Origin: Elusimicrobiota bacterium
Lineage (GTDB): Bacteria; Elusimicrobiota; Elusimicrobia; UBA1565; UBA9628
Assembly (NCBI GenBank): GCA_016212825.1
Contig: JACRDS010000013.1
Location: 31,677 to 95,676 of the forward strand
Length of the DNA stretch: 64,000 nucleotides
Direction: 5' to 3'
The position numbers and the translations under genes were made by a program. Every line of letters starts with the position of its first letter. Within the stretch, counting starts at the first letter, position 1. The notes beneath the pieces were generated by a model, which was given only the letters and a program-made list of their open reading frames with translations, did not search any database and was not told the DNA's origin. This document shows positions 5,590 through 40,653 of this stretch, one piece after another.

Positions 5590-5626
5590 GCCGACGTAGC
5601 TCAGCGGTAGAGCAACCGCCTTGTAA
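5590..5626 (+). repeat. attL core: 37-nt 5' half of tRNA-Thr(UGU), truncated copy
   Basis: Identical base for base to 40617-40653. Identity ends exactly at the 3' end of the anticodon loop, and the following sequence cannot complete a cloverleaf. Confidence 0.85.
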
Positions 5627-5730
5627 TCCCCAGCCTGCTTCCTTCCTGCGGCGGCTCCGCGCCCGTCGGGAACGCTGTTTCTCGACGAGAAACGCCCGAA
5701 TCGTCGGCTTGTGCCCAGTTGTGCCGGCCG

Positions 5731-5778
5731 GTGTCCAACTGGCCGGTTTTGGCTCCAGCGTGGACACTTTTTGGACAC
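5731..5778. repeat. candidate arm-type recombinase binding sites (GTGTCCA ... TGGACAC-TTTT-TGGACAC), attL side
   Basis: The 22-bp AGCGTGGACACTTTTTGGACAC (5757-5778) is identical to 40516-40537. An inverted copy of the TGGACAC heptamer is at 5731-5737. Confidence 0.45.
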
Positions 5779-5784
5779 CGGCGC

Positions 5785-5952
5785 TCAAGGGGACCGGAGG
5801 AGCCGTTCGAGCCCAAGGATGATCCGGACGACATCGCGCCGGGCGCCGGCGCCGCCGGCGGCAAGATGCCGCGCTGCCTGGGAGAGCACCGCCTCCCCGT
5901 CCCAGGGGACTGGATGCTGCGCGACGATGGGCCGTTCAGGCCGCGTATTCAT
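5785..5952 (-). CDS. small hypothetical protein (55 aa)
   Basis: Its start overlaps the stop of the upstream 63-aa gene (ATGA on the minus strand). This is the tail of track ORF 5785..6219. No recognisable domain. Confidence 0.4.
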   Translation of the reverse strand: MNTRPERPIVAQHPVPWDGEAVLSQAARHLAAGGAGARRDVVRIILGLERLLRSP

Positions 5953-6140
5953 CGCACGGCCTCCACATACTGCATGGCCAGGCGTATCAGCGCGACCCGG
6001 ATCGGGCCGGCCCCTTTGCGGCCGTCCACGATGAGCCCGAGATGACATGATGCGTAGAGGGGGAACCCCTCGACCGCGCTTTCGCGCCAGCCGTTCCCGT
6101 CCTGCCCGAATCCGACTGCGCCCTGCCCGTTGATCTTCAT
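5949..6140 (-). CDS. small hypothetical protein (63 aa)
   Basis: ATG at 6140 is preceded by GGAGGTGCGATT, the same SD context as the second RadC-like gene. Lies inside track ORF 5949..6158. Confidence 0.45.
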   Translation of the reverse strand: MKINGQGAVGFGQDGNGWRESAVEGFPLYASCHLGLIVDGRKGAGPIRVALIRLAMQYVEAVR

Positions 6141-6413
6141 AATCGCACCTCCGCCCACCCGGAGGGCGAAGGCGTCCGAGGGCCCGGCCCGAGGCGAGGA
6201 TTAAATGGCGGGCCCCCACCGGACGGCGGTCCTCGGCGCAGCCGAGCTGACCGCCCCGGCGCAGCCGGGCTGCCTGAAAATTTGGGGCCTGAGAAACGTC
6301 ATGAAAAACGCGCGGCGGGGGTTGGGCCGGATTTTCAGGCCGTCGGAGGGGAGGGCCGTTTATGCCGCAGCCGCGGTCCGGGCCGCTCCTGGACGCCTGA
6401 GGGGGGTGCGATT
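6141..6413. repeat. hairpin-rich non-coding module, copy 1 (inverted relative to 10811-11083)
   Basis: Aligns end to end with the reverse complement of 10811-11083 at high identity (my estimate is 80-90%). Both ends carry GGTGCGA SD-like boxes facing outward. A 2-nt indel breaks the overlapping track ORFs. Confidence 0.7.
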
Positions 6414-6554
6414 ATGACAGATTGCGAACGGGGCGCATCCGGACCGAGCAGGGTGATCTTGGCGCTGACCGCTACCGCTATGGCGCGATGGGGTCTTGAG
6501 GGGTGGGAACTTCCCAGGCGCTCGGCCGTTTGGATTGGTGGAGGACAAAGATGA
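6414..6554 (+). CDS. small hypothetical ORF (46 aa) translationally coupled to the RadC-like gene
   Basis: ATG at 6414 follows GGGGGTGCGATT. Its stop overlaps the RadC-like ATG (ATGA at 6551-6554). No homology recognised. Confidence 0.35.
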   Translation: MTDCERGASGPSRVILALTATAMARWGLEGWELPRRSAVWIGGGQR

Positions 6555-6976
6555 TCGATTCCGACATGGTTGCCACGAAAAAGGTCTCGTGCCCTGCGGG
6601 CGTCTCGATAGACGCCGCAGAGGACGTATTTCTACTGCTTGCCGCACGGGCTCAGGCGCTGGCGGACGCGCATCTGTGGCGGGTGGACCTTGACCGGATG
6701 AACCGAGTCATTGGCTGCGAGTTGATCGTGCCGCGCGGCGCGGACACGCATATCGTCCATCCGTATGCGGTCTTCCGAGGGGCCGTCGCCGCTCGCGCGG
6801 CGAAAGTGGCGCTTGTGCATAATCATCCCGCGCAGAACCTGGTCTTGTCGGATGGAGACCGCATCCTAACGGAAATGATGGCGATTTTCGGCGACCTTCT
6901 GCGGATTCCTGTCTACGACCACATCATCGTGACGGACAAGGCCTATTTTAGCTTCAATGAAGCTGGTCTACTCTAG
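6551..6976 (+). CDS. RadC-like JAB/MPN domain protein
   Basis: HNHPAQNLVLSDGD is the H-x-H-P...S-x-x-D JAB metal motif, and the C-terminal IPVYDHIIV is typical of RadC C-terminal domains. The alternative start at 6503 cannot be excluded. Confidence 0.8.
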   Translation: MIDSDMVATKKVSCPAGVSIDAAEDVFLLLAARAQALADAHLWRVDLDRMNRVIGCELIVPRGADTHIVHPYAVFRGAVAARAAKVALVHNHPAQNLVLSDGDRILTEMMAIFGDLLRIPVYDHIIVTDKAYFSFNEAGLL

Positions 6977-7009
6977 CCGAATACCCAGACCGCTTCGAAG
7001 GTCCGCTGC

Positions 7010-7216
7010 GTGAGCGATAACGGCGGGATTCGTTGGCGGATGGGCTGGGTGAAGGTGAAGGTCTCGATGGCCTGCATCGGAGAGAACGTCGGCCTTGAAG
7101 AAGTCGACAACGGCATCTGGGACGTCTACTTCGGTTCTTTCAAGCTAGGCCGGCTAAATGACAGAAAAATGGAGATCGAGAGTCCTTGCCGGAAATTCAA
7201 CCAAAGAAAAGTGTGA
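7010..7216 (+). pseudogene. 3' remnant of a DDE transposase (IS481-family-like C-terminus)
   Basis: GIRWRMGWVKV..CIGENVGLEEVDNGIWDVYFGSFKLGRLNDRKMEI resembles the conserved C-terminal tail of IS481-type integrase-core transposases. The catalytic part is absent. Confidence 0.5.
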
Positions 7217-7444
7217 CCTGTGTCTCTGGAACACCACGAGATATGCCCTTCCCATCCCGGCCTCCGGGTTCAGCAAGGCAACGCCACGATTGCCTTAAGC
7301 TTCTGGATAATGATATTACGTAGATAGGTTCATTTCTTGGGAATGTGTCAGAGCTTCAGGCACATGGAGCCCGCAGAACGTAGTCTTCATTGGCAGCTTG
7401 GAACTTGCCAACTTAAAAGGTATCAATTGAGGTAAAGCCCCACC

Positions 7445-8044: not shown

Positions 8045-8049
8045 CCGCC

Positions 8050-10810: not shown

Positions 10811-11083
10811 CGCACCTCTCCTCGGGACCCAGGAGCGCCGGCCTCCCGGGCTTGCGGCATAAACGGCCCTCCCCTCCGACGGCCTGAAAATCCGGCCCAA
10901 CCCCCGCCGTGCGTTTCTTTGTTGGCGTTTATTGGGCCCCGGATTTTCAGGCAGCCCGGCTGCGCCGGGGCGGTCAGCTCGGCTGCGCCGAGGACCGCCG
11001 CCTGGTGGGGCCCCGCCATTTATTCCGCGCCCGCGCGGCGCGGCCTCGGGTCCCTCGCCCTCCGGGTGGGCGGAGGTGCGAAC
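10811..11083. repeat. hairpin-rich non-coding module, copy 2 (inverted relative to 6141-6413)
   Basis: Reverse complement aligns with 6141-6413. It ends in GGAGGTGCGAAC immediately before the ATG at 11084. Confidence 0.7.
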
Positions 11084-11491
11084 ATGAAAAAAGACTTCGA
11101 AGGAGCAAAGCAGGGCGGCCAGCCGGCGACGGCGGCCTCAAGCAAGCAGCACTACTACATCCCGTCCTACAGCGTCCGCCTGGTCCGCGAGACGTTCGTC
11201 CGGGCCGAGAGCAAGCTGGCGGACAGCCCGCAACGCGTGGTGGACATCATCCGGGCCTATTGGGGTGACGGGGAGTTGGACCGCGAGCACCTGGTCTGCT
11301 TGATGCTGAATGCGCGCTCCCAGTGCATGGCCATCAACACGATCAGCGTGGGCACGTTGACCGCCAGCTTGGTGGCGCCCCGCGAGGTTTTTAAACCTGC
11401 CGCAATCTTGGGCGCGGCTGGACTTGTCCTCTGCCATAATTTATGTGAAGCTTCACATAAGTTATGTTATGTGGAGCGCCGAGTTATGTGA
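11084..11491 (+). pseudogene. RadC-like gene, 3'-truncated
   Basis: N-terminal and linker regions are RadC-like (REVFKPAAILGAAGLVLCHN). Similarity breaks inside the HNHP motif at about 11439, where unrelated AT-rich sequence begins. Confidence 0.65.
11441..11491. repeat. 20-bp perfect palindrome plus TTATGTG heptamer repeats at the RadC truncation junction
   Basis: TTATGTGAAGCTTCACATAA (11441-11460) is self-complementary. TTATGTG recurs at 11467 and 11484. Confidence 0.5.
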
Positions 11492-11536: not shown

Positions 11537-12367
11537 TCAGGACAGCTTGACCCCATTCTTGTGTAGGGCTTGACCGGTTCCGATATTGAACTCCATCTGC
11601 TGCTCGAATTCAACCGGCGGCAGATAGCCTAGCGACGAATGCAACCGCTTCTTGTTGTAGACCTCCTCGATGAAACGCGGCAGTCTCTCGACGACATCTT
11701 CGTGGGTCTCGTAGTTCCCGAGATAGACCTCCTCGTATTTGAGCGTCTTCATGAAGCTCTCGGCCGCGGCGTTGTCATAGGGGTTCCCCGCCCGCGACAT
11801 GCTCGGCCGCAGTCCCCAAGCCTGCAGCAGGGCCACGTAATCCCCGCAGGCATACTGCACCCCTTGATCCGAGTGGTGGATGCAGCCAGGAGGCGCCTGG
11901 CGGGCCTCCAGGGCATGCCTGAGCGCTCCCAGCGCCAGCTGGGCGTCGATGCGCTTCGACACGGACCAGCCGATGACCCGTCGGGAATGCAGGTCCAGGA
12001 TCACGGCCAGGAACACGAACCCCGTCAGGATCCGGATGTAAGTAATGTCCGCCACCCAGACTTGGTTGAGCCCGGTGGTGACCAGTCCCCTCAGGAGGTT
12101 GGGATACCTCGGGAAGGGATGCTGCGAGTCGGTGGTGCGCACGAAGGCCCGCGGCCGGATCGGGAAGAGCCCGTATTGGCGCATGACGCGCCTGACGCGT
12201 TTCCCGTTGATGTGGATTCCCTGGCGCCCGAGCTCCACCTGGAGGCGCCGATAGCCGTAGGCCGGCAGCTCGAGATGGATCGCATCGATGCGGTCCTTGA
12301 GTTCGACGTCTGCCACCACACGGGCCCCGCTGGACCGGTAGTAGTATCCGCTTGTCGAGAGGCCCAC
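11537..12367 (-). CDS. IS3-family transposase OrfB (DDE integrase core)
   Basis: Typical rve domain with HSDQGVQYA, a [11 protein letters not shown] block and a C-terminal [10 protein letters not shown]. Probably expressed as an OrfAB fusion. Confidence 0.85.
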
Positions 12368-12717
12368 TATGCCGCATCCTTGCGAAACCGATGCCAGTTT
12401 AGCCCGGTTATCGTCGACGAATCGGCGCTTTTCAGCCGTCGTGCGTATGCTTCGAGTTTTTTTAAAAGGTCGATCTCCATCGTCAGTGAACCGACCTTCT
12501 CGCGAAGCTCCCGGACTTCTTTCTCCAGGCTTTTCTCTCGGACGGAGGGCTGGCCATCGAGCGCCCCATCTTTAAGCTGCTCGCGCCAACGGCTGATGGC
12601 TGTCGCCGAGATCGAATACTTCCGGGCGGCTCCCGTCAACGACACCTGCCCAGATTCGATCTCTGAAACGATATGCTTCTTCAACTCCGGCGGGAAAGAC
12701 CGTCTCTTCTTTGGCAT
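12367..12717 (-). CDS. IS3-family transposase OrfA (HTH)
   Basis: [17 protein letters not shown]...[18 protein letters not shown] is the IS3/IS911 HTH_Tnp_1 pattern. The leucine-zipper-like end contains the slippery site. Confidence 0.8.
12457..12463 (-). other. programmed -1 frameshift slippery heptamer A AAA AAA
   Basis: The minus strand reads TTA AAA AAA CTC in the orfA frame. The orfB frame is -1 relative to orfA (checked by coordinate arithmetic). Confidence 0.6.
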
Positions 12718-13066
12718 TTCCAGCTCCTTTTCAGCAGACATTTTACCATGCCTCCTTTCGGGAGCCGGTCTGAGGCCATCACAAAAACGACATCAATCTA
12801 TCCAGTCCAAGGGCGCAGTCCAGCCAGCATTTTGGTGCATATCTACAATCGTTCCATCTTGGTTGGGCCGCCGCTAACAAAATCCAGCGATGAGTGTTGG
12901 CTGCATATTCTTGGAGTCCTCCTATTTTCCGGCTACTTCATTGGCATTGGCATCGGGATTCTAGAGGTTCTTAAAGCACGACTTCTTTGTGCGCAATTTT
13001 CACGAGCCCATGGTCAGGCACCTCAATTCGGAGATAGTACAACGACTGGCATGAAGGAGCAGGGCG

Positions 13067-13798
13067 ATGATTAATTTGGGATCCCGACCGCCGAGTGTGA
13101 GGGGAAGTTTGTTCGCATTGATTGTGCTGGCCGTCCCTGGCTGGTCCGCAACTCCGCAAGCCGATTCAACCGATCTCCGCCGCCAGCAACTCATCAAGGC
13201 CCAGAACCTCGTCATCGTCGACGTCCGCGACCCCGACTCCTACGCCAAGGGCCACATCCAAGGCGCAAAAAGCATTCCCGCCCACTCCCTCGCAACAGCC
13301 CAACTCCCCCGCGACTCCCGGATCGTCATCTATTGCGGCGAAGACGCCTGCTCCCTCGGCGCCCAAGCCAGCCAAAGCCTCATCGCCGCAGGCTACACCA
13401 AGGTCCAGACTTTGGCCGGCGGCTTTGCCGACTGGCTCAAACACGGCTACCCCGCCCAGACCGGCACACCCAACACTCCCCAGGCCAAACACGACCGCAT
13501 CACCGCCAAAGCGGCCCAAGCTCGCCTCGACAAAGAACAGCTCATCCCCATCGATACCCGCCCCAGCCTCGAATACTTAGCCGGCCGCATACCCCGCAGC
13601 CGCAACATCCCATTGGAACAATTCGACGCCAACATCGCCGGCCTCGCCAAGGACAAGGAATACCTCGTCTACGACCGAGACCCCAAGCGCAGCAAGCTCG
13701 CCGCAGACAAGCTCATATCAGCCGGCTATAAGACCCTGGAACTCTCGGGCGGCTGGGCCGCCTGGGTCAAGACCAAGCAGCCCGTGGAGATCAGATAG
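13067..13798 (+). CDS. secreted tandem rhodanese-domain protein
   Basis: Signal peptide followed by two rhodanese-like domains. The first has a Cys loop (IYCGEDACS). The second has Asp in the catalytic position (VYDRDPKRS). Confidence 0.75.
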   Translation: MINLGSRPPSVRGSLFALIVLAVPGWSATPQADSTDLRRQQLIKAQNLVIVDVRDPDSYAKGHIQGAKSIPAHSLATAQLPRDSRIVIYCGEDACSLGAQASQSLIAAGYTKVQTLAGGFADWLKHGYPAQTGTPNTPQAKHDRITAKAAQARLDKEQLIPIDTRPSLEYLAGRIPRSRNIPLEQFDANIAGLAKDKEYLVYDRDPKRSKLAADKLISAGYKTLELSGGWAAWVKTKQPVEIR

Positions 13799-16700
13799 AT
13801 GAGCCCCAAAGGCCTTAGACGCCTCGGCCTCGCAAGCGCAGCTTCAGCGCTCTGCCTCGCCCTGCCCGTCATCAAGGCCCTCGGCCAGACCAACTCCCTG
13901 TGCGCCGTCGTCAAACTCGAGATCAAGCAACAGGCCACCCTGGAGCGCGAAGGCTTCGACGCCCATCTCGTCATAGAGAACAACGTCATAGACCAACCCC
14001 TCACCAGCCTCAAGGTCCAGATCTACTTCAAGGACGCCGAAGGCAACCCTGCGGACCAAAGCTTCTTCGTCAAGGTCGCCACACTCACCGGCACCAACGC
14101 CGTAGACGGCACCGGCGTCGTCCAATCCTCCGGCACAGCCGACATCCACTGGCTCATCATCCCCGCCGCCGGCGCAGGCGGCAACAACCCAGCCGGCCAC
14201 CGCTACGGCGTCAGCGCGCTCATCACCAGCGTATCCAATGGCGCGCCCCAATCCGTCAAGACCTTCGACGCCTACATCACCGTCCACCCCCAGCCCCTCA
14301 TCAAGCTCGAATACGCCCTGCCCTACGAAGTCTTTGGCGACGAGCCCATGACCGAAGGCAGCATTGAGCCTGTCGAGCCCTTCCCATTGGCCGCACGCGT
14401 CACCAACATCGGCTACGGCGCCGCCAACAACTTCCAGATAGAATCCGCCCAGCCAAAGATCGTTGAGAACAAGCAGGGCCTCCTCGTGGACTTCAAGCTC
14501 ATCGGCACCCAGGTGGGGGGCAAGACCATCCCCGACACCTTGCTCATCCCCTTCGGCGACATCCAGCCCGGCGCCGTCAGCCAAGCCTCCTGGCTCATGA
14601 CCGCCACTCTCTCCGGACGGTTCATCTCCTTCACATCCACCTTCAGCCACGCCGCCGAGTTGGGCGGCCAGCTCACCTCCCTCATGCAGAGCGTCACCAC
14701 TTATACGCTCCTTAGGGACGTGCTGGTGGACCTGCCCGGCCGCGACCAAGTTCCCGACTATCTGGTCAATACCAGCATGGACCGCGAAGCCATGCAGGAC
14801 CTCCTCAATAGCGGAAGCCAGCCTCCGGCCGAGTTGATATTGGAGTCCGACCAAGCCCAGCCCCTGCCCGTCACCGAAGTCCCAGGCAGCCTCTCCGGCG
14901 GCATCGGAGGCACTAGCGCGGCACTCACCTATACCATGACTGGGGCTGTCGGCTCCAACATCTGGGTGCACAGCTACGCTCCCTGGCCCTACGGAAAGAA
15001 CGTCGTCCTGGCCTATGCCAAGCGCGGCGACGGCAAGCTGCTCAACACCAAGAACGTCTGGATCTCCAAGCACTTCCGCAAGTCCGACCTCTCCACCATA
15101 TACTGGATCAACATTCTCGACCTCACCGGCTCGACCAACACCTACACCCTCCAATTCGACCCCGCCGGACTGGACCTGCCGCCCGGTGCGGTCACGGACC
15201 TGGCCGCGGCCACCTACCCAAGCGGCGGCAGTCTGGCCCTATCCTGGAGCTCTCCCGGCGAGGACGGCTACACAGGCCAGCTCTTCGGCGGCCACGTCTT
15301 CATCGACGCCCAGCTCAGTTCGGCCGCGGCTTTCTCCCCGGCCAACTCCCAGGTGCGCTTCGCCACCAGCGCCGCCGCCGGCGGCTCCCAGACTTATCTG
15401 GCATCTGGCTTTATCGGAAACGCCACCTACTATGCTGCCATCTTCATACAGGACACCGGTGGCGGCATGTCCGGCCTCTCCAACCTGGCCACGGCCTATA
15501 CCCTGCCCAATCCTCCGCTGAACCTGGCCATATCATCCGTGTCGGCCTTCTCCATCGCCGCCAACTGGCAGGTCGGCAACAACAGCCTGCCCGTCACCTA
15601 TAGCCTCGGCATCTCCACGGCCATGGGCGGCGCCATCGTGGCCGCAAGCCCGCCCCAGGACTCCTTCAACCGCAGCTACACCTTCACCGGCCTCTTGCCC
15701 GGCACCACTTACTTCATCTATGGCTCGGCCAAGAATCCCGACAGCAGCGTGACCTCGCCCTTCTCCTTCATGGGTTCCACCCAGACTTTGCCCGGCCCGC
15801 GCGATGCCTTGCCGCCCAGGACCGCTTTGGCCGTGAACAGCCCGTCCGCGACAGGGGCGGACAACGTCCTGATCGTAGGCCGCGTCTCCACGTTCACCTT
15901 GACCTCCCTCGATGACGCCCTGGCCGTGGGCGACGGCACGGGCATGGGCACGGCCTTCCAGGTCCTGGCCGTTGACGGAATGGTCCGGCCCACCTTCACC
16001 AACCCCAGCCCGGCCCCAGGCCAGGTCTTTGCCAGCACGTTCTCCTTGGCTTCTGAGGCGGACGGCCTCTATGTGCTCGCCTACCACGGTGAGGATAGCC
16101 TGGGCAACCGCGAGGATGTCCATCTGGCCACCGTGGCCGTGGACAACACTCCGCCTGCCGCAGTCCTCACTTCCCCATCTTCAGCCTGCCAGGGCCTCTG
16201 CGGCGTGGTCAAGGGACGGCTCGATGTTCGCGGCTCGGCGGCGGATGAGCATCTTGCCTATTGGAGCCTGGAGGTGTCCTCGGGCGCTGACTATGCGCTC
16301 ATCTCCTCGGGAACGGCCGCATCCTCAGGCACTTTGGCGGTCTGGGACACGGTCGGCCTCACCGGTTGGCAGACCCTGCGCCTCACAGCCGTTGACGCGG
16401 TCCTCAACGTTGCGGTAGCCACCGCCTCTGTGTTCCTGGGCGAGCCTTCCGCTACCCTCATCCTGGGCGACAATACCGTATTCAATAAGCCCGCAGGCGT
16501 GGCCGTGGGCATGGACGGCAAGATCTACGCGGCTGACGCCAACAACGACCGCGTGGCCGTGTTCAGTGCCACAGGGACCTTCCTGGCGTCCTTCACAGGA
16601 TTCAAGAAGCCCAAGGCTGTCGCGGTGGATGCTTCCGGCAGCATCTTCGTGGCCGATACCAACGGCAGCAGCTTGGTCAAGCTCTCCACCTCAGGCCAGA

Positions 16701-18109
16701 TTCTCATGGCCGTGGGCCGGACCAAGAAAAAGAATGAAGGCTTTATCCCAGGCTCCGGATCGGGCGAGTTCAACAAGCCCCAGGGCGTGGCCCTGGACGA
16801 GGCAGGCAACATCTACGTCTCGGACACCAACAACCACCGGGTGCAGAAGCTCGGGCCGGACGGCAGCTTCAAGCTGGCCTTCCAGCTGCCTCCGGCCCCG
16901 GCGTGGTCCGGTGATGAGGACGACGGTGCGGACAGCTCCGGGCTGGGCCGGCCCGTGGGCATCGCCTTGGACGCCGCAGGCAACATCTATACGGCAGACC
17001 AGGCAGGAAGCCGCATCCTGAAGTTCGACCCGGCCGGGCTCCTGCTGGCCAGTTTCGGCGTGGGCATCACCTCCAGCCCCTTGGGCGTTGCGGTGAGCAG
17101 TTCTGGCGACTGCCTCTTCGCCTCGGATTCAGGCCATGACCGCATACTGCGCTTTGACGCCTCCGGCGAACTCCTGCTCGAGTTCAGCCTGGGCTTCAAC
17201 AAGCCTGCGGGCTTGGCCTTTGACGCAGGCCAGAGCCTCTTCGTCGCTGACCGCAACAACAACCGCATCGTCAAGATTGGAGCGCCTGCCGGACAGGCCG
17301 CGAAGGTCGTTTCGGGAGGCGAGAAGAACAAGACGGTCAAGGGGCGCATCACCAAGCAAGCCGGCGGCAGGCTCGACCGCGAGGACAAGGCCGCAGTGCT
17401 CATCCCGGCCCAGGCCTTGGCCGAGGACCTGGAGATCACCATCTCCTCGCCCGTGCTGCGCAGCGAGCTTGAAGAAGCCCTCAAGGCTCGCAAGCTCGGC
17501 CAGGCCAGCTTGGTCTCGGTCTCCACCGGTGTGGAGTACGGCCCCGAAGGCACGGTGTTCAACGCTCCCGTGACCCTGGTCCTGCCGTACGACCCGGTCG
17601 CGGTGAGCGCGGCCGGCTTGCGCGAGGCCGATCTTAAGGTCCACTACTGGAACCGGGACAGGCAGGAGTGGGAGGTCCTGACTTCCATCGTAGATGCGGG
17701 CGGCCGCGTGGTCATGGCCCAGACAATGCATTTCTCGCTCTATGAGGTGCTTGGCTCAGGTTCAGGAATGGGCGTGGCGGCCGCGGCCGACGAGGCCTTC
17801 GGTTATCGCGACGTCTACGCTTTCCCGAACCCGGCCCGACGCAGCAACCCCGTCATCCGGACCCAGGTGGGTCTGGCCGATTCCGTGGACGTGAACATCT
17901 ACGACATAGCGGGCAAGCTGGTCGGCTCCGGCAGCCTGACGGGCAGCCAGGTCCTTGACGACGGCAACGGCAAGGGGCCGCAGTACACCTACGATTACCT
18001 TTGGGACACCTCGAACGTGGGTTCCGGGGTCTACATCTATGCTGTGACGGCCAGGAAGGCAGGCTATTCGCCCATACGCAAACAAGGGAAGGTCGGCATC
18101 CTGAAATAG
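13799..18109 (+). CDS. 1436-aa secreted surface protein with FN3-like domains, NHL repeats and a FlgD-Ig/T9SS-type C-terminal domain
   Basis: Signal peptide. Repeated NKP.GVA.D..G.IYV.D..N.R(V/I) NHL units. C-terminal YAFPNPAR...VNIYDIAGKLV...GVYIYAV...GKVGILK matches the CTD/FlgD-Ig pattern. The start abuts the rhodanese stop. Confidence 0.8.
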   Translation: MSPKGLRRLGLASAASALCLALPVIKALGQTNSLCAVVKLEIKQQATLEREGFDAHLVIENNVIDQPLTSLKVQIYFKDAEGNPADQSFFVKVATLTGTNAVDGTGVVQSSGTADIHWLIIPAAGAGGNNPAGHRYGVSALITSVSNGAPQSVKTFDAYITVHPQPLIKLEYALPYEVFGDEPMTEGSIEPVEPFPLAARVTNIGYGAANNFQIESAQPKIVENKQGLLVDFKLIGTQVGGKTIPDTLLIPFGDIQPGAVSQASWLMTATLSGRFISFTSTFSHAAELGGQLTSLMQSVTTYTLLRDVLVDLPGRDQVPDYLVNTSMDREAMQDLLNSGSQPPAELILESDQAQPLPVTEVPGSLSGGIGGTSAALTYTMTGAVGSNIWVHSYAPWPYGKNVVLAYAKRGDGKLLNTKNVWISKHFRKSDLSTIYWINILDLTGSTNTYTLQFDPAGLDLPPGAVTDLAAATYPSGGSLALSWSSPGEDGYTGQLFGGHVFIDAQLSSAAAFSPANSQVRFATSAAAGGSQTYLASGFIGNATYYAAIFIQDTGGGMSGLSNLATAYTLPNPPLNLAISSVSAFSIAANWQVGNNSLPVTYSLGISTAMGGAIVAASPPQDSFNRSYTFTGLLPGTTYFIYGSAKNPDSSVTSPFSFMGSTQTLPGPRDALPPRTALAVNSPSATGADNVLIVGRVSTFTLTSLDDALAVGDGTGMGTAFQVLAVDGMVRPTFTNPSPAPGQVFASTFSLASEADGLYVLAYHGEDSLGNREDVHLATVAVDNTPPAAVLTSPSSACQGLCGVVKGRLDVRGSAADEHLAYWSLEVSSGADYALISSGTAASSGTLAVWDTVGLTGWQTLRLTAVDAVLNVAVATASVFLGEPSATLILGDNTVFNKPAGVAVGMDGKIYAADANNDRVAVFSATGTFLASFTGFKKPKAVAVDASGSIFVADTNGSSLVKLSTSGQILMAVGRTKKKNEGFIPGSGSGEFNKPQGVALDEAGNIYVSDTNNHRVQKLGPDGSFKLAFQLPPAPAWSGDEDDGADSSGLGRPVGIALDAAGNIYTADQAGSRILKFDPAGLLLASFGVGITSSPLGVAVSSSGDCLFASDSGHDRILRFDASGELLLEFSLGFNKPAGLAFDAGQSLFVADRNNNRIVKIGAPAGQAAKVVSGGEKNKTVKGRITKQAGGRLDREDKAAVLIPAQALAEDLEITISSPVLRSELEEALKARKLGQASLVSVSTGVEYGPEGTVFNAPVTLVLPYDPVAVSAAGLREADLKVHYWNRDRQEWEVLTSIVDAGGRVVMAQTMHFSLYEVLGSGSGMGVAAAADEAFGYRDVYAFPNPARRSNPVIRTQVGLADSVDVNIYDIAGKLVGSGSLTGSQVLDDGNGKGPQYTYDYLWDTSNVGSGVYIYAVTARKAGYSPIRKQGKVGILK

Positions 18110-18110
18110 C

Positions 18111-19034
18111 ATGAAGATAACCACTCTCGCCTTGCTGGCGCTTCTGACGCCCGCGGCAGTCCGGGGCGGCGAGACCGCGGCCTTCCTCAAGCTGGGCGTA
18201 GGCGCCCGGGCCGTGGGCATGGGAGGAGCCTACACGGCCTTGGCCAACGACGTCAACGCCCTGGGCTGGAACCCGGCTGGGCTCTCCTCTCTGAATAAGC
18301 GGGAACTGGGCGCCATGCACGCGGAGCTGGCAGCGCAGACCCGCTACGACTTCATAGGCTATGCCCAGCCCGTCAAGTACGGCACCCTTGGAGTCGGTGC
18401 TGTTTACCTGAGCCATGGCGGGCTGGAAGGACGCAGTGAGACTGGTGCTCCCACCGGCACCTACGGCGCCTCGGACCAGGCCGTGAGCCTGGGACTGGCA
18501 TCCCGACTGGACGCGGGCCTGCGCCTGGGCGCCAACGTCAAGTACATCAGAAGCAGCATCGCAAATGTCTCGGCGCAGAGCTTCGCCTTGGATCTGGGTG
18601 GGCAGTACGCTTTGAAAGGAGTCCGGGGCCCGGGTCTGCCTTTGCTAGGCGTGTCGGTCCAGAACCTGGGCCCCGGGATGAAATACCTGGACCAGACCTC
18701 GCAACTGCCCCTGACCATGGCGGCCGGCATAGGCTATCAGTTGCCCGTGGGCCTCACCTTTGCCATGGACTTCAAGCACAGGCCCCATAGCCGTGATTCA
18801 GAGCTCAGTGTAGGCACTGAATACGCCCTGCTGGCAAACTTCGCCTTGCGGGCCGGCTATGCCACGCAGAAGGCCTACAACGGCACCCGCGCCTCGGCGG
18901 GGGGATTCTCGGCCTTGAGCGGCTTCGCGACCGGCCTGGGCTTCAAGATGAAGGCCTACAGTCTGGACTACGCCTTCACCCCTGCCGGCGAAATGGGCAA
19001 CGTGCAGAGGTTCTCCCTCGGCGCCAGGTGGTGA
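18111..19034 (+). CDS. PorV/PorQ-family (TraF_2-like) outer-membrane beta-barrel protein
   Basis: Signal peptide, then LGVGARAVGMGGAYTALANDVNALGWNPAGL, the family N-terminal signature. Alternating beta-strand pattern with a terminal aromatic residue. Confidence 0.7.
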   Translation: MKITTLALLALLTPAAVRGGETAAFLKLGVGARAVGMGGAYTALANDVNALGWNPAGLSSLNKRELGAMHAELAAQTRYDFIGYAQPVKYGTLGVGAVYLSHGGLEGRSETGAPTGTYGASDQAVSLGLASRLDAGLRLGANVKYIRSSIANVSAQSFALDLGGQYALKGVRGPGLPLLGVSVQNLGPGMKYLDQTSQLPLTMAAGIGYQLPVGLTFAMDFKHRPHSRDSELSVGTEYALLANFALRAGYATQKAYNGTRASAGGFSALSGFATGLGFKMKAYSLDYAFTPAGEMGNVQRFSLGARW

Positions 19035-19046
19035 TTGGGGCGGGCG

Positions 19047-20384: not shown

Positions 20385-20499
20385 GAATGCAGCCTCCGTT
20401 TGAGCGGCTATTCTTTCAAATGAGAGATGGCCCCCTATTATACCCCACTTCCCGGCATCAGCAGGGTGCTTTTCCGCGCAATCCTGCGAGCGCAGTCCA

Positions 20500-20515
20500 T
20501 GGCACTCCGATTGCT
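20500..20515 (+). promoter_or_regulatory. sigma-54 (-24/-12) promoter TGGCAC-N5-TTGCT
   Basis: TGGCACTCCGATTGCT has exact consensus spacing. It lies 50 nt upstream of the 38-aa ORF and next to the divergent bEBP gene. Confidence 0.65.
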
Positions 20516-20565
20516 CCGCAAGGGGTGCATGTCGGCCATGAAATCAAAAACACGGAGGATTACAA

Positions 20566-20682
20566 ATGAAGAACATCGGCTCGCTGATGCAGGAACTCGG
20601 TCTCAGGATGGACGCGCAGAGCGCCACGATCTCCGCCGAGGCCTTGGAGGACGTCGAGGTCAACAGCATCCGGAAATACTAG
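20566..20682 (+). CDS. 38-aa candidate RiPP precursor peptide (not in ORF track)
   Basis: MKNIGSLMQELGLRMDAQSATISAEALEDVEVNSIRKY. GGAGG SD lies 8 nt upstream. The ORF sits directly upstream of the ABC exporter and RRE-rSAM/SPASM genes. Confidence 0.55.
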   Translation: MKNIGSLMQELGLRMDAQSATISAEALEDVEVNSIRKY

Positions 20683-20752
20683 AGTATCGCCCGTGGGGAA
20701 CGGCGTTGGCGGCGGGAAAGCCCGCCAACGTCTCCCCGCGAGGAGAGCCGAT

Positions 20753-22090: not shown

Positions 22091-22098
22091 GAGGCCGC

Positions 22099-25052: not shown

Positions 25053-25166
25053 CGGGCTCAAGCGAATATTGTGTGCAGGGTGACTTTGCGGGCAGCCCGG
25101 TCGCCAGTCGGTGAAAACTCGGGGAGCAAATCCCCACCTGCCCGACAGAACGCAGGAGGTGGAAGA

Positions 25167-25709: not shown

Positions 25710-25978
25710 GCGGGATGAACACCTACAAGGCGCTCGACTACCACCTCAAGACCTTCGGCTTCTGGCCTGGGGACTTGATCGGCACGTTCCTGGGCTTCTG
25801 CGTGGTCCACTGGGTCTTCAACAGCTTCCTGCTGGACCTGGTGGTAGTCGGGCCCTTGCTTTTCGCGGCGTTCAAGACGAGGAAGCGCGCTCCCGCCTAT
25901 GTCGGGTCGCTGTGGCGCTTCGCCACCACGGCCCGGCGCTTCAGCGTGGGGCTGGGCAGGGAGGGCTGCGGCCGATGA
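25706..25978 (+). CDS. VirB3/TrbD-like small membrane protein
   Basis: About 90 aa with a two-helix hydrophobic core. Its stop overlaps the VirB4 start (ATGA). The call rests on position and size. Confidence 0.55.
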   Translation: MSGMNTYKALDYHLKTFGFWPGDLIGTFLGFCVVHWVFNSFLLDLVVVGPLLFAAFKTRKRAPAYVGSLWRFATTARRFSVGLGREGCGR

Positions 25979-30266: not shown

Positions 30267-30268
30267 CC

Positions 30269-35817: not shown

Positions 35818-36206
35818 GGCGCCATCATCCTGCCGTGCGCCGGGACGGCCCCTTGGAGGGGCTTCTGCGCTGCGGCGCGAGCCCTGAGCCGGCCCGGATG
35901 CCGGAGCAGGCCGAGTTCTGGCCCGCGGCTTCCGGCCCCGCAGGGGTGTACCGGCAGGAGAAACTGCTCCTGCGCGGCGACTACCTTGACGGCCTGGAGA
36001 GGGTGAGGCGGGACTTCGGCTTGAGAAAGGCTGAGTTCAGGAAGTCCTTGACCATTGGGGAGCTGGTGGACGCGGCAGTGGGCTTCATGCTCCGCCAGGT
36101 GGACTTCAGCACCCTGGAAAGCGCGGAGGACCTGGAGCGCCACGTTGCCAGGCAGGCCCTGCGCGGGACGCAGGCGAGCCTGGGCAGGTCGTGGCAGGAG
36201 GGATGA
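35814..36206 (+). CDS. hypothetical protein
   Basis: TTG at 35814 overlaps the previous stop, with an alternative ATG at 35899. Its stop overlaps the next ATG. No domain recognised. Confidence 0.35.
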   Translation: MRRHHPAVRRDGPLEGLLRCGASPEPARMPEQAEFWPAASGPAGVYRQEKLLLRGDYLDGLERVRRDFGLRKAEFRKSLTIGELVDAAVGFMLRQVDFSTLESAEDLERHVARQALRGTQASLGRSWQEG

Positions 36207-36889
36207 TGATGAGATACGCGGCGCTGTTCCTGCTTCTTGCACGGCCTGGAGCGGCCGAGGACCTGGTGGACCCCACGGCGCTCTTCAGCCAGGCGGCGCA
36301 GGCGGCCAAGCCTGCCGCGGCCGAGCGGCCGCCGGCCTGCCCGGGCGCGGACGACTTCTTCCTGCCCACGGGCTTCACCTTCCCGGCCCTGCTTCCCGAC
36401 GCCATCTTCAGCTACAACACCGCGGCCCCGGTCAACGCCGTGCTGGAAGACGACGTGAAGTCCCGCGGCCGCGTGATCCTGCCCAGGCACACGCGCCTCA
36501 TCGGCGGCGTCAACGCCCTGCACACGCTGGACCGGGTCAACATCGCCTGGCGCCTGGCGGTACTGCCCGAGGGGTGCGAGTTCGAGTTCTCGGGCATCGC
36601 CCTCTCGGCGGACGACGGCTCGGGAGGAGTGAAAGGCAAGGTGGAGAAGCATGAGGATTCGGTCGCGGCGCAGGTGGCCCTTAAGTCCATCCTCAACGGC
36701 GCACAGCAGGCCGCGGCCATAGCAGTCCCGGTCGAAGGCGCGCTGGCCTCCGGGTTCTCCGGCGAGGCCAACCTGATGCTCGACCAGAACATAGCCAAGG
36801 TCAAGAGCCTGGAGTCCATCTACATCCGCGAAAGGACGCAGATCCGCGTCTTGGTCATGAGGAGGTTCGCCCGAGATGGCGGAAAATGA
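36203..36889 (+). CDS. VirB10/TrbI-like protein (short form)
   Basis: Signal-like N-terminus. The core VLEDDVKSRGRVILPRHTRLIGG...RVNIAWRLAVLPEG...DDGSGGVKGKVEKH follows the TrbI/VirB10 C-terminal domain pattern. It lacks the usual long Pro-rich N-terminal region. Confidence 0.6.
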   Translation: MMMRYAALFLLLARPGAAEDLVDPTALFSQAAQAAKPAAAERPPACPGADDFFLPTGFTFPALLPDAIFSYNTAAPVNAVLEDDVKSRGRVILPRHTRLIGGVNALHTLDRVNIAWRLAVLPEGCEFEFSGIALSADDGSGGVKGKVEKHEDSVAAQVALKSILNGAQQAAAIAVPVEGALASGFSGEANLMLDQNIAKVKSLESIYIRERTQIRVLVMRRFARDGGK

Positions 36890-38765
36890 ATCCTCGCCCT
36901 GCGGCTGGGAGTTCGTGCTCATGGTCGCTCTGATAGGCATGGCCTTGCAGAAGAACGCGCCGGCCATGGAGCGCCGGCTCGTGGCCTGGGAGGTGGCGCC
37001 TGTCACCGCGGCCGGGGTCGCGGCCCGCGCGGCCTATCGCCGGCTGGGGCAAGGGGCGACCCTCGGCAAGAAGGCATGCCTCAACGTCGCGGTCAACCTC
37101 TTTGCGAAGTCGGCCAATCCGCTTCGTCCTGGCGTGGGCTGGTTCGGGTTGTTGTCGCTCGGAGTCTTTCTCTGCCCCTTGGCGGCGCGCCGCATGGGCT
37201 CGTTGCGTTATTGGAACACCGAGTGGCTCGCAGCCGCGGTGCTGGTCACGGGGGCAGGCGCGTGTTTCGGGTTGGCCATGCCCGCTGCCTGGCCCTGGCC
37301 GGTGCTCTGGGTGGGCGGCGTGTGGGCCTTCGCCAACACAGGGGCCGCCCTCTTCTGCCTATGCCTGGCAATCTGGTCCTTCCATAAGGGTTCGAAGCGT
37401 CTCCACCATGGTCCGGCATTCAAACTGCCCATGATGTCGAAGCCATGCTCCGGCTTCACCGTGGGCCGCGTGGACCCGAAGATCATGCCCGGCCACTCCC
37501 GGTGGCTGGCCTCAGGTGGAGGCGACATCCAACTCCCTTTCAACCGCCTTTCCTGCGGCCTGACCGTGCTGGGAGAGAAGGGCGCCGGGAAGTCTCGGCT
37601 GCTTTTCGCCATACACGATGCCATCAGGAGGCAGCATCCGAACGTCCCCATCCTCATCCACGACCCCAAGAGCGAATGGTACCGGACCTACTACGACCCC
37701 AAGGCGGACCTGTTCTTCGCCCCGCACTTCAAGGGCACCGCGGCCTGGAGCCTGTGGCGGGATTTCAGGGAGGTGCCGGAGCTGCGCCACGAACTGCTTT
37801 CGACCTGCGTCTACGCCCACCAGGACCGGGATGATACCTTCTGGATGGACCAGGCCGTGGACCTCCTGCACCAGGTCTCGGGTTTCAAGACTCTCTCCAA
37901 AGCTGCGGATTATCTGGGAGACATCCCGCACCAGCACCCGGACGACGAGTTCCTCTTGTCGGTCTTCGGCACCGCAAAGCTCGGCTTCCTGGATCTGGCC
38001 AAGACCGAGCTGATGTCCGCCATCTCGGGGGCCCGGCCGCTGTCCATTGACGATTTCCTCCGGCAGAAGGGCCGCATCATCCTGCTCAACAACCCCTCCT
38101 GCGCATCCGAACAGAAGGGGGCTTTCAGCCTGTTTTTGTCCGCATTCCTGCTGAGGGCGCTTTCGCTGCCGGACGTGCCGGAGGGCACCCTGCGCGCTGT
38201 CGCCATCATCGACGAGGCGCTGACCTTCAACCTGCCCCCGGACGTGGAGAGGCGCATCTCGACGCTGTGCCGGTCCAAGGGCGTCTGCGTCGTGGCCGGC
38301 GCCCAGCGCCTGCCGGACCGCCAGCGCAACGAACGCGGCGAATGGCGCACCGCGGAGCACACCTTCGCCATGAAATGCGTGAACCAGGACACGCAACGCG
38401 AGCTGTCCAGGAAGGCCGGCAGCCTGCTGTTCCGACGCATGGCCCAGAGCACGACCACTTCGGCCTCGGAGCGCGCGGCCGGGCAGTCTCATACCAGGAG
38501 CGAGCAGGACCTCAGCCAGGAGGCCATCCCGCCGGAGCACTTCGGAAGGCTGTCGCCCCGCGAGTTCGTCTTGTTCCACGACCAGGGCATCGTGACCGGC
38601 AGGACCGTGGAGGTGGGGCGCGAGCAGCGCGCCGTCGCCCTGCCGCCGTACGAGCTGCGCGAGGACGTGCGCCGGATATCTATGGGGCTGATCGCCGACA
38701 TGCCTGCGCAGAAGGAGGACGAAAAAGAAGACGGAAAGGAGGATGGAGAAGATGAGCGTGATTGA
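36876..38765 (+). CDS. virD4: type IV coupling protein (VirD4/TraG/TraD family)
   Basis: N-terminal TM helices, Walker A GEKGAGKS, Walker B AIIDEALTF, acidic KEDEKEDGKEDGEDE tail. Confidence 0.85.
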   Translation: MAENESSPCGWEFVLMVALIGMALQKNAPAMERRLVAWEVAPVTAAGVAARAAYRRLGQGATLGKKACLNVAVNLFAKSANPLRPGVGWFGLLSLGVFLCPLAARRMGSLRYWNTEWLAAAVLVTGAGACFGLAMPAAWPWPVLWVGGVWAFANTGAALFCLCLAIWSFHKGSKRLHHGPAFKLPMMSKPCSGFTVGRVDPKIMPGHSRWLASGGGDIQLPFNRLSCGLTVLGEKGAGKSRLLFAIHDAIRRQHPNVPILIHDPKSEWYRTYYDPKADLFFAPHFKGTAAWSLWRDFREVPELRHELLSTCVYAHQDRDDTFWMDQAVDLLHQVSGFKTLSKAADYLGDIPHQHPDDEFLLSVFGTAKLGFLDLAKTELMSAISGARPLSIDDFLRQKGRIILLNNPSCASEQKGAFSLFLSAFLLRALSLPDVPEGTLRAVAIIDEALTFNLPPDVERRISTLCRSKGVCVVAGAQRLPDRQRNERGEWRTAEHTFAMKCVNQDTQRELSRKAGSLLFRRMAQSTTTSASERAAGQSHTRSEQDLSQEAIPPEHFGRLSPREFVLFHDQGIVTGRTVEVGREQRAVALPPYELREDVRRISMGLIADMPAQKEDEKEDGKEDGEDERD

Positions 38766-38994
38766 CATCGGAGGGATCAAGATCAACTACTTGTCGTTGC
38801 AGGGGCTGGGCCGGGCGGTTGAGGCGGAACTGGCCAACACCGACCGAAGACTCGCCGAAACCCTCAAGGAGCTCAAGAGGCTGCGCCGCGCCCGGCGGGC
38901 GCTGCAGCAGATGCTGGGCGGCCAGAAAGCCAGGCCGGTCCAGCCGGCTCCCGCGGCCGGGGCCGCGCGCGAGCCGGCCTGCGCCTCGCGCTGA
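38743..38994 (+). CDS. small hypothetical coiled-coil protein
   Basis: Track ORF overlapping the T4CP 3' end. No domain recognised. Confidence 0.3.
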   Translation: MEKMSVIDIGGIKINYLSLQGLGRAVEAELANTDRRLAETLKELKRLRRARRALQQMLGGQKARPVQPAPAAGAAREPACASR

Positions 38995-39031
38995 GGCGGA
39001 GCGCGGCATGGCGGTCTTTCGCTGGCGGCTG

Positions 39032-39070
39032 ATCCCCGCCCGGGCGTCGTCCGGGCCGGAGGCGGGGGAT
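39032..39070. repeat. GC-rich imperfect inverted repeat (ATCCCCGCC...GGCGGGGGAT)
   Basis: A 9-10 bp outer stem with an inner CCCGG/CCGGG stem, lying between the T4SS genes and xis. Candidate terminator or oriT-type structure. Confidence 0.3.
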
Positions 39071-39107
39071 TGCGAGAGGAAGAGCTTCGTTTGGAAGGAG
39101 GTGCGGC

Positions 39108-39296
39108 ATGACGGAGAGATTGCTGACGATAGAGGAGGTCTGCGTGAAGCTGGGGGGGGTCAAGCCTTGGACGATACGCGGCTGGGTGAGCCAGAGGAGG
39201 ATACCCTTCACCAAGGTGGGCCGGCTCACCAGGTACCCCGAGGCTCAGATCAACGACTGGATCAGGTCCAACACCCGCGTCCCCCTCGGCGCCTGA
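39108..39296 (+). CDS. xis: excisionase-family / MerR-type HTH DNA-binding protein
   Basis: 62 aa. LLTIEEVCVKLGGVKPWTIRGWVSQRRIPFTKVGRLTRYP matches the excisionase-family HTH_17 pattern. Located directly upstream of the integrase. Confidence 0.7.
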   Translation: MTERLLTIEEVCVKLGGVKPWTIRGWVSQRRIPFTKVGRLTRYPEAQINDWIRSNTRVPLGA

Positions 39297-39350
39297 GCAA
39301 GGGAACTTCTCCAGGCCTCGTCCGTTGGAAGTAGAGGGGGAGGAGCCGCC

Positions 39351-40493
39351 ATGGGACTGGTGAAGAAGGGCGAGAACTGGTTTATAGACTACCGCGCCAA
39401 CGGGCGGCGCATCCGGGAGAAGGTCGGCCCGAGCAGGAAGCTGGCCGAATCGGCGCTGGCCAAGCGGAGGCTGGAACTCGCGGAGAACAGGTTCCTGGAC
39501 GTCCGCAAGGCCAGCCGGGAGACCTTCCAGAGCTTCGCCGAGAAGTACCTGGAGTGGGTCCAGGGGCGCATCCGCTCGATCGCCAACGAGCGCATCTACG
39601 TGCGGCGGCTCAACGCGACCTTCGGCGGCACCTGCCTCTCGGATATAGACGTGGCCCGCGTCGAGAAGTTCATGGCGCAGAGGCTCAAGGAGCCGCGCCA
39701 GCATCCATATCGCGGGAAATCCGCATGGAAGCTCGACGCGGTCGAGCGCGAGGCGAAGATTAAGGCGTGGTACGCGGGGAACGGAAAGACGATCTCAAGG
39801 GCGCACGTGAATCGCGAGGTCTCCTGCCTCCGGCGCATCCTTAATAAGGCGGCGGACTGGAAACTGCTGCCGGCGCGTCCGCTCGGGGGGCTCAGGCTGT
39901 TCGATGAGCGAGAGTCGATACGCAAGCGCTATCTGAAGCCCGAGGAGATCCGGACCCTGCTTGCCGCCTGCGGCCCGGGCCTCAGGCAGGTCGTGACCTT
40001 CGCCCTCTACACCGGCCGCAGGTACGGCGAGATATCCGGAATGCGGTGGCAGGACGTGGACGTCGAGAACGGATACGTGTACTTCCCGAGGACCAAGAAG
40101 AAGGAGCCGGACCAGGTGGCTCTGCCGCCGCGGGCGCGTGAGGTCCTGGCGGAGTTGCGCCGCGATGCGAACGGCGATTTCGTCTTTCATAAGAAAGACG
40201 GCGGGCAGCTGCGGGTCGTGCGGTCGGGCTTCAAGAGGGCCCTGCGCAGGGCGGGAATCGCGAATTTCAGGTTCCATGATTTGCGGCATACGGCCATATC
40301 TTATATGATGATGAACGGCATCGATTTGAAGACCATCGCCGAGCTCGTGGGCCATGCGACGGCTCAAATGGTGGACAAGCGCTACGGCCATCTTTCGCCG
40401 GACCACAAGCGCGCCGCCGCGGAGGTTTACGGTTCGGCGATGGACAGGTTGTGCGGGCATGGGCAAGTCCCCTCTCAAGCCGGGGCGGCCTGA
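39351..40493 (+). CDS. int: tyrosine recombinase / integrase
   Basis: N-terminal SAM-like domain. Catalytic region with R...HDLRHTAISYMMMNG...GHAT...Y (RFHDLRH, RYGHL). Confidence 0.9.
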   Translation: MGLVKKGENWFIDYRANGRRIREKVGPSRKLAESALAKRRLELAENRFLDVRKASRETFQSFAEKYLEWVQGRIRSIANERIYVRRLNATFGGTCLSDIDVARVEKFMAQRLKEPRQHPYRGKSAWKLDAVEREAKIKAWYAGNGKTISRAHVNREVSCLRRILNKAADWKLLPARPLGGLRLFDERESIRKRYLKPEEIRTLLAACGPGLRQVVTFALYTGRRYGEISGMRWQDVDVENGYVYFPRTKKKEPDQVALPPRAREVLAELRRDANGDFVFHKKDGGQLRVVRSGFKRALRRAGIANFRFHDLRHTAISYMMMNGIDLKTIAELVGHATAQMVDKRYGHLSPDHKRAAAEVYGSAMDRLCGHGQVPSQAGAA

Positions 40494-40515
40494 CGATTTG
40501 GCTGACTGTGGGTTT

Positions 40516-40537
40516 AGCGTGGACACTTTTTGGACAC
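40516..40537. repeat. candidate arm-type site (AGCGTGGACACTTTTTGGACAC), attR side
   Basis: Identical 22-mer to 5757-5778. Lies 79 bp upstream of the core. Confidence 0.45.
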
Positions 40538-40616
40538 TCGCCCCGATTCTGGAACTCCGGTCGCAAATCCCTTGTTGTGAATTATGTAGGAAAAACCAAT
40601 AGAAACAATTGCCGAT

Positions 40617-40653
40617 GCCGACGTAGCTCAGCGGTAGAGCAACCGCCTTGTAA
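40617..40653 (+). repeat. attR core (37 bp, 5' half of the intact tRNA-Thr)
   Basis: Identical to 5590-5626. Confidence 0.85.

Follow-up and report, generated by a model that had tools for sequence, protein, structure and literature searches.

A 35-kb integrative element of Elusimicrobiota that appears to have entered its tRNA-Thr(UGU) target gene with reversed polarity

Nearly all known phages, genomic islands and integrative and conjugative elements (ICEs) that integrate into tRNA genes restore the 3′ end of the target and leave the host promoter in charge. What becomes of the target when it is the 5′ half that is duplicated is the question raised by a locus in a 64,000-nucleotide (nt) stretch of DNA from an Elusimicrobiota bacterium, referred to below as the window, which corresponds to C49:31677-95676 of a metagenome-assembled genome (MAG; G000) of 3.56 Mb in 186 contigs, with a completeness of 85.7%. 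Positions 5627-40653 of the window very probably represent a 35-kb conjugative-type integrative element that was inserted into a tRNA-Thr(UGU) gene by a tyrosine integrase, and that was inserted with reversed polarity.

The boundaries of the element are marked by a 37-bp sequence, GCCGACGTAGCTCAGCGGTAGAGCAACCGCCTTGTAA, that occurs twice on the + strand of the window without a mismatch, at 5590-5626 and 40617-40653, with a start-to-start spacing of 35,027 bp. A 37-mer match arose in none of 100 dinucleotide-preserving shuffles of the window, and a search of the whole MAG recovered just these two copies. The sole tRNA that ARAGORN detects in the window is a tRNA-Thr(TGT) at 40617-40688, with its anticodon at position 33; no tRNA was called at the left copy (5590-5626), and apart from the gene at 40617-40688 no tRNA-Thr(TGT) gene turned up in the MAG. 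The repeat spans tRNA bases 1-37 and ends on the last base of the 7-nt anticodon loop, CTTGTAA. Beyond the repeat, both sides differ: the left copy is framed by GGCGCACC and TCCCCAG and the right copy by TTGCCGAT and GCGGTAG, and TCCCCAG occupies the place where the 3′ strand of the anticodon stem, GCGGTAG, would stand. In all of this the initial annotation is borne out, having described a perfect 37-bp direct repeat at these exact coordinates, differing bases outside both copies, a right copy that forms the 5′ part of an intact tRNA-Thr, and a left copy that stops at the 3′ end of the anticodon loop and gives way to unrelated sequence. The assembled tRNA is identical at 72/72 positions to the tRNA-Thr of two relatives, G002 and G006. 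The two target-site features can be assigned as follows.

5590-5626, + strand: attL core, the putatively displaced native 5′ half of tRNA-Thr(UGU), bases 1-37 (repeat search)
40617-40688, + strand: attR and the working, probably hybrid tRNA-Thr(UGU), with an element 5′ half at 40617-40653 and a native 3′ half at 40654-40688 (ARAGORN)

Comparison with related genomes indicates which parts of this arrangement belong to the host. The membrane gene in the right flank (40703-42577) has orthologues throughout the genus and family, and in G001, G002, G004, G007, G008, G011 and G020 the orthologue has an uninterrupted tRNA-Thr(TGT) immediately upstream. The sequence downstream of the right copy (GAGCCATTTC...ATGA) agrees with the flanks of these relatives. 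Within the 30 nt that precede the uninterrupted tRNA-Thr(TGT) in G001, G002, G006 and G008 is a conserved box, ATTATCCTTGTATAAT, an extended -10 element (TG-n-TATAAT) that ends 9 nt before +1. Many other tRNA genes of the MAG have a TGnTAnAAT box 8-12 nt before +1, so that the box represents the normal type of tRNA promoter in this organism. In the window the box stands before the truncated copy.

5565-5580, + strand: native tRNA-Thr promoter-like box ATTATCCTTGTATAAT, with the TG-n-TATAAT element assigned to 5573-5580, stranded before the truncated copy (comparison with same-genus genomes)

Ahead of the intact right copy stands unrelated A/T-rich sequence that does not contain ATTATCCTTGTATAAT. 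On the left side, the genes just upstream of the tRNA in G008 encode proteins with 73-82% identity to those of C49:21482-24957, which lie on the same contig and in the same orientation, left of attL. The box, the right flank and the G008 synteny together point to an ancestral order in which a neighboring block X is followed by the promoter, tRNA-Thr and the membrane gene. The order in the window would then be block X, 12.3 kb, the promoter with a 5′ half, the 35-kb insertion, a 5′ half joined to the 3′ half, and the membrane gene. Because the left copy has kept the native upstream sequence, and the right copy the 3′ half and downstream gene of the host, the working tRNA appears to be a hybrid whose 5′ half and upstream region were supplied by the element. 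This reading, which had been proposed at the outset, is supported by the restriction of ATTATCCTTGTATAAT to the left copy and by the synteny with G008.

The 12.3 kb between the G008-syntenic block and the tRNA promoter (C49:24958-37265, of which window positions 1-5589 are the right part) are of interest in their own right. The stretch includes a TPR-radical SAM gene (771-4172) and a TPR/GDSL gene (4037-5533); it lies beside the tRNA in none of the relatives examined, and no tRNA fragment was found inside it.

The sequences adjoining the two cores on the element side have the appearance of attachment-site arms.

5627-5780, + strand: left arm of the element (P′ arm; homology to the left arms of relatives)
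40494-40616, + strand: right arm of the element (P arm), with an arm-type site and an A/T-rich stretch containing GAAAAA and TAGAAA

Each arm holds one perfect copy of a 19-nt arm-type site, GTGGACACTTTTTGGACAC, composed of two half-sites (GTGGACAC-TTTTT-GGACAC). The site occurs exactly twice in the window, against 0 expected by chance, at 5760-5778 (133 nt inside the left core) and at 40519-40537 (79 nt inside the right core), in direct orientation. The left arm contains in addition a conserved box, CCCGTCGG, at 5662-5669 and an inverted repeat, GTTTCTCGACGAGAAAC, at 5677-5693, both of which recur at equal spacing in other elements, as well as two copies of TTGTGCC (5709-5715 and 5719-5725). 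Block by block, it can be aligned with the sequence found after a 5′-half-only tRNA-Thr in G029, G016, G146, G026 and a metagenome contig. The arm motif is also present between the int stop codon and the tRNA in G016, G146, G022, G013, G038, G029 and G033, which are all of the close integrase homologues that still have an adjacent tRNA copy, and analogous tandem half-sites, such as GTGACACTATGGTGACA, accompany more distant homologues. In the circular form, the GTGGACACTTTTTGGACAC pair would flank the core as P′ and P arm-type sites, where they would organize a complex of integrase (Int) and excisionase (Xis).

Two near-copies of the arm motif (ATGGACACTTTT[C/T]GGACAC) reside elsewhere in the MAG, at C100:9656 (+) and C101:3444 (-). 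One follows a tRNA-Ala(GGC) gene at a contig end, about 190 nt downstream of it, and the other lies just past a gene whose C-terminus looks Fic-like by eye; both are probably remnants or ends of related elements.

Between the repeats, and mostly on the + strand, are genes for the recombination machinery and for parts of a type IV secretion system (T4SS).

25071-25709, + strand: TrbC/VirB2 T4SS pilin (TrbC 5.3e-11)
25618-28425, + strand: VirB4-class ATPase (TraG P-loop 1.8e-41, AAA_10, TraC_F_IV)
36191-36889, + strand: VirB10/TrbI-like gene (TrbI 3.4e-15)
36876-38765, + strand: type IV coupling protein, T4CP (TrwB_AAD_bind 2.1e-13 and TraG-D_C 7.8e-06)
39108-39296, + strand: Xis-like, excisionase-type helix-turn-helix (HTH) gene, 62 amino acids (Pfam HTH_17 2.6e-11)
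39351-40493, + strand: tyrosine integrase, transcribed towards the tRNA (Phage_integrase 8.5e-29)

These matches confirm the earlier placement of integrase and Xis-like genes just inside the right repeat and of VirB4 and T4CP genes between the repeats, and they add the pilin and TrbI. The int open reading frame (ORF) is intact, the core begins 124 nt past its stop codon, and the catalytic set R...HxxR...H...Y (R223/R224, H309, R312, H335 and Y345) is invariant among nine homologues. The ORFs of int, xis, VirB4, T4CP, the pilin and TrbI are all open and of full length. A 190-amino-acid ORF at 38762-39334 was considered as Xis and discarded on account of its junk-like translation, the real Xis being the 62-amino-acid ORF at 39108-39296 in another frame. 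Between VirB4 and TrbI are several genes to which no family could be assigned, a tail-collar-domain protein and a second PorV-like protein. Comparable modules exist elsewhere: elements at G013:C17 (L064/L065) and G010:C32 (L067/L068), with 65-68% identical integrases, carry a syntenic series of pilin, FlgD-Ig protein, PorV-like barrel, VirB4, genes of no assigned family and TrbI. No T4CP match was obtained in the 20-24 kb examined of these elements, and no tRNA was found in the 1.5 kb downstream of the G010 int.

Is the reversed arrangement peculiar to this locus? The closest integrase loci are in Elusimicrobiota MAGs, according to the organism names in the records, and 14/18 loci of the same class have a tRNA (Thr-CGT, Thr-TGT, Ser, Leu or Tyr) on the strand of int, 70-340 nt downstream of that gene. 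In five genomes a second tRNA copy was located (tRNA-Thr in G029, G016, G026 and G146; tRNA-Ser in G174) that consists of the 5′ half only and stops exactly where the anticodon loop ends. A promoter box of the native type stands before each of these copies, and after it comes an arm with homology to window positions 5627-5780. Three metagenome contigs contain an attL-type junction of the same kind. Among distant homologues (26-35% identity; Acidobacteriota, Acidimicrobiia and other phyla), the tRNA mostly lies about 100 nt downstream of int on the opposite strand. This convergent arrangement is the canonical one, with the tRNA's 3′ end turned towards the element. The point made in the initial annotation, that tRNA-integrating elements usually duplicate the 3′ part and that here the 5′ half is duplicated, agrees with these convergent homologues and with a literature that calls use of the 5′ side the rarer case.

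The distribution of the two arrangements was followed on an integrase tree of 98 rows, built by a quick maximum-likelihood method, which is unrooted, is drawn from a sample chosen by similarity to the query, and includes related sequences that share labels. On this tree 23 rows are co-directional (the window and 22 fetched loci) and 23 are convergent, with just two changes of state. The window and 21 other rows of the Elusimicrobiota class with an adjacent tRNA are all co-directional and fall into two neighboring groups; the one other co-directional row, L101, is from Chloroflexota and accounts for the second change of state. The convergent rows all come from other phyla, and the distant relatives are convergent with one exception. 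As far as can be judged from these sequence comparisons, reversed polarity is a heritable trait of the integrase clade rather than an accident confined to one locus.

Related loci also display more complex arrangements. At G146:C32 (L081, approximately 1380-1770) and G029:C64 (L071) are “solo” structures, in which a native promoter and a tRNA-Thr 5′ half are joined to a left-arm homologue of 160 nt that ends in the arm motif; 7 nt further on is another tRNA-Thr(CGU) gene, intact in G146 and reduced to a 5′ half in G029. These could be tandem or collapsed elements, or mixtures of strains. In G006 (G006:C63, L026, 9075-12504), the same site, the anticodon loop of tRNA-Thr, is occupied by an island of 3.3 kb that has no integrase and carries an HTH gene and two Fic/DOC genes. 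A full tRNA is on its left; on its right is a pseudo-tRNA, with a promoter-like box, whose 5′ half is degenerate and whose 3′ part is good. The island has tandem half-sites of its own (TTTAGGCACA, twice), and a 429-amino-acid ORF that was considered as an integrase homologue proved to be a Fic protein.

Together, these features suggest a route by which the element could have taken up its present position. Its attP would carry tRNA bases 1-37 and an upstream region rather than the 3′ part of the gene. Crossover would have to occur within the 37-bp identity, most likely in the 7-nt anticodon loop, given that identity ends at the loop in every family member, with the anticodon stem probably providing the core-type binding region. 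Once the element is integrated, the native promoter would drive only the truncated 5′ half at attL, and the hybrid tRNA-Thr(UGU) would presumably be transcribed either from a weak -10-like box belonging to the element or by read-through from the co-directional T4SS-xis-int train, a route of the kind put forward for pTN3-type elements (PMC8371274). Excision by Int and Xis would rebuild the native gene. The candidate -10-like box, TAGAAA, is located at 40600-40605, 11 nt before the tRNA, and in relatives a TAAAAT or TACAAT is set at this same distance of 11 nt. No terminator-like site was found between int and the tRNA. A scan of both att regions for the sigma-70 consensus returned nothing, with a scanner that requires a -35 element; the native box is obvious by comparison. 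A strict rule for element-supplied promoters, based on a -10 or on GAAAA-N-TAnnAT, was abandoned because it holds in only 8-10 of 23 family members. Separately, a GAAAA(A/G) run lies 3-8 nt before the -10-like hexamer of the element-side tRNA in approximately 10 of the 23 members (window 40585-40606; L044, L045, L047, L050, L052, L093, L094), where it might belong to a promoter or serve as a site of bending or binding.

Several observations weigh against an active conjugative element inserted in this way, and some of them bear equally on an alternative in which the insertion took place as described and the element is now an immobile or non-self-transmissible remnant, such as a decaying island or a mobilizable element. 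The genes 771-5533 of the left flank are beside the tRNA in no relative examined; we therefore infer the empty site from the promoter box, the right flank and the more distant left synteny. Of the empty junction foreseen in the initial annotation, the tRNA-Thr and membrane gene are indeed uninterrupted in relatives, and the left-flank part did not materialize in any of them. A metagenome scan with a degenerate pattern for attP, attB, attL and attR of this species gave 0 matches, leaving current mobility unproven; a second scan gave only the three attL-type metagenome junctions of related elements mentioned above and no attP. On the side of expression, TAGAAA does not have the conserved final T, and just 8/23 family members have a clean and correctly spaced TAnn[AT]T box, for which reasons the supply of a promoter by the element is something we infer. 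Most directly, no relaxase was found, either by family matches among the tested ORFs (Pfam, NCBIfam) or in a six-frame search of the genome with PF03432, PF08751 and PF03389, a search that leaves other MOB families outside its range, and the element is interrupted by an IS3-family insertion sequence (IS), which, with no relaxase detected, may mean that it is defective in transfer. The 35-kb ICE originally described thus stands as an integrase/Xis/T4SS element bounded by a duplicated tRNA 5′ half; the term ICE is provisional because the relaxase was not found. Integrase, VirB4 and T4CP, all hallmarks of an ICE, are present, and a self-transmissible ICE is not established from its sequence. Integrase-less remnants at the same tRNA site in relatives, like the 3.3-kb Fic/HTH island of G006, fit a history of decay, and a remnant would be compatible with all the other evidence presented here. 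However, the 37-bp cores are identical, both arm-type sites are perfect copies, the principal ORFs are uninterrupted, and a relaxase of an undescribed family is conceivable in a phylum with no studied conjugative elements. A remnant is accordingly a possibility to be taken seriously, albeit a doubtful one.

A different origin for the polarity itself would be an ancestral attP that held the whole tRNA-Thr and whose 3′ half has since decayed in the left arm, making the polarity a by-product and not a property of the integrase. Infernal aligns positions 5590-5709 to the tRNA model with insertions of 26 and 46 nt (24.8 bits, E 0.008), and CGTCGGCT at 5702-5709 equals the 3′ end of the tRNA. This score is below the gathering score of 29, however, in a background of 65-70% G+C, and CGTCGGCT is not conserved in other arms. 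CCCGTCGG is conserved in left arms even where the acceptor stem of the host tRNA differs; together with the model match, it may be what is left of a 3′ half once carried by an ancestral attP. In G006 and in the int-carrying contig of G146, the tRNA copy in the right-hand or int-side position has a degenerate 5′ half, and G006 has a full tRNA at the other end, as a whole-tRNA ancestor might leave behind. Yet all 22 members of the class that have a neighboring tRNA, the window included, share the direction from int to tRNA, which fits a fixed architecture, and such an ancestor seems unlikely. It could also be asked whether a free circular element bearing a tRNA-like 37-mer was wrongly threaded into a chromosomal tRNA gene during assembly, the genome being an incomplete metagenome bin in 186 contigs. 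But both junctions and the whole 35 kb are on one contig of 99.9 kb, independent assemblies from other genera show the same attL-type (native promoter, 5′ half, arm) and attR-type (int, arm, tRNA, chromosomal gene) junctions, and a 37-bp repeat is presumably shorter than the final k-mers usual in metagenome assemblers; an artefact of this kind is very hard to credit. Insertion by the tyrosine integrase with reversed polarity remains the preferred explanation.

The rest of the element includes cargo and mobile DNA, with a G+C content of 0.52-0.69 across the element as compared with 0.70-0.74 in the flanks. Genes for an MFS transporter and a polyprenyl synthase are in a stretch of lower G+C (0.52-0.60).

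6503-6976, + strand: RadC-like JAB domain gene (Pfam RadC 3.5e-25)
10919-11491: second RadC-like gene (Pfam RadC 7.2e-14)
11537-12741, - strand: IS3-family IS, with orfA at 12367-12741 and orfB at 11537-12367 (Pfam HTH_Tnp_1 1.8e-10; rve 3.6e-25 and HTH_21)
within 13067-23496: cargo genes for a rhodanese, a 1436-amino-acid NHL-repeat protein with a type IX secretion system (T9SS)-type C-terminal domain, and a PorV-like barrel (Pfam)
within 13067-23496: cargo genes for a sigma-54 activator (- strand), an ABC-like ATPase and a radical SAM enzyme (Pfam)

A 412-amino-acid ORF on the + strand at 11639-12877, entertained for a time as a relaxase, is an antisense frame of the IS3 transposase. It matched nothing in Pfam, NCBIfam, PHROGs or PDB, gave one weak match by word search, and in a search of the full library drew spurious “homologues”, more than 1000 of them, whose consensus was odd and of low complexity.

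Reversed polarity, though rare, has been described before, and the present case introduces no new principle. What is new is a complete, self-encoded bacterial example with a T4SS module and mapped arm sites, together with evidence for reversal across a whole Elusimicrobiota integrase clade, where the exceptions had until now been single bacterial cases and the archaeal pTN3 group. The clade makes it possible to test how polarity is encoded in the architecture of attP, how hybrid tRNAs are expressed and whether the stacking of reversed elements differs. There is also a practical aspect, in that island-finding tools that seek 3′ tRNA fragments downstream of tRNA genes would miss reversed elements. 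A more far-reaching proposal, and one that we regard as quite improbable, is that this lambda-type integrase lineage of Elusimicrobiota always takes over the 5′ half and the transcription of its target tRNA, such that the host's only tRNA-Thr(UGU) would be under element control for as long as the element is integrated, through a weak promoter or through read-through from a sigma-54-linked T4SS-xis-int train. If it were true, decoding of ACA codons would be coupled to the state of the element, and the clade would offer a natural system for asking why nearly all other elements keep the native promoter.

Among known systems, a partial parallel may be drawn with the SXT/R391 ICEs at prfC, which enter the 5′ end of their host gene and supply it with a new 5′ end and promoter, like the element described here; they differ in that the target is protein-coding rather than a tRNA gene and in that the integrase and T4SS lineages are unrelated. 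A further parallel is offered by the bacterial integrative elements in “reversed target gene orientation” that Zhao and Williams reportedly described in 2002 (J Bacteriol 184:859). These elements reportedly resemble the present one in the recombination of a tyrosine integrase with the 5′ part of a tRNA-type gene, in a displaced 5′ fragment that keeps the native promoter and in a front supplied by the element. Here a 35-kb T4SS-bearing element is found in Elusimicrobiota, with the polarity extending across an integrase clade, beyond a single element, and arm-type sites mapped in both arms.

More generally, recombination at the 5′ side is known but “considerably less frequent” (PMC6563490). According to section 18 of one review, pTN3-like archaeal integrases make use of the tRNA's 5′ half, a mode “seldomly encountered in bacteria”, and the anticodon-loop sublocation is a classical type of integration site (PMC8371274). 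For pTN3 the same source states that the tRNA is thought to be expressed from the integrase side, apart from its own promoter (PMC8371274). In Thermococcales plasmids and viruses such as pTN3 and TKV4 (SSV-type) attB is likewise the 5′ half of a tRNA gene, and 41 bp are common to attP and attB of pTN3. In pTN3 the int ORF contains attP and is therefore split when the element integrates (PMC5495485), whereas in the window int is intact and the core is outside it. The present element is moreover bacterial and has Xis and arm-type sites, which make it lambda-like and not SSV-like as pTN3 is. With the canonical anticodon-loop ICEs and islands (Williams 2002, as presented in the relevant section of PMC8371274) it shares a core in the anticodon stem-loop, a tyrosine integrase and Xis beside one att site, and direct repeats of tRNA sequence. 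In the canonical elements, as that section presents them, however, the 3′ part of the tRNA is duplicated and the native promoter stays in charge; the Elusimicrobiota clade does the opposite.

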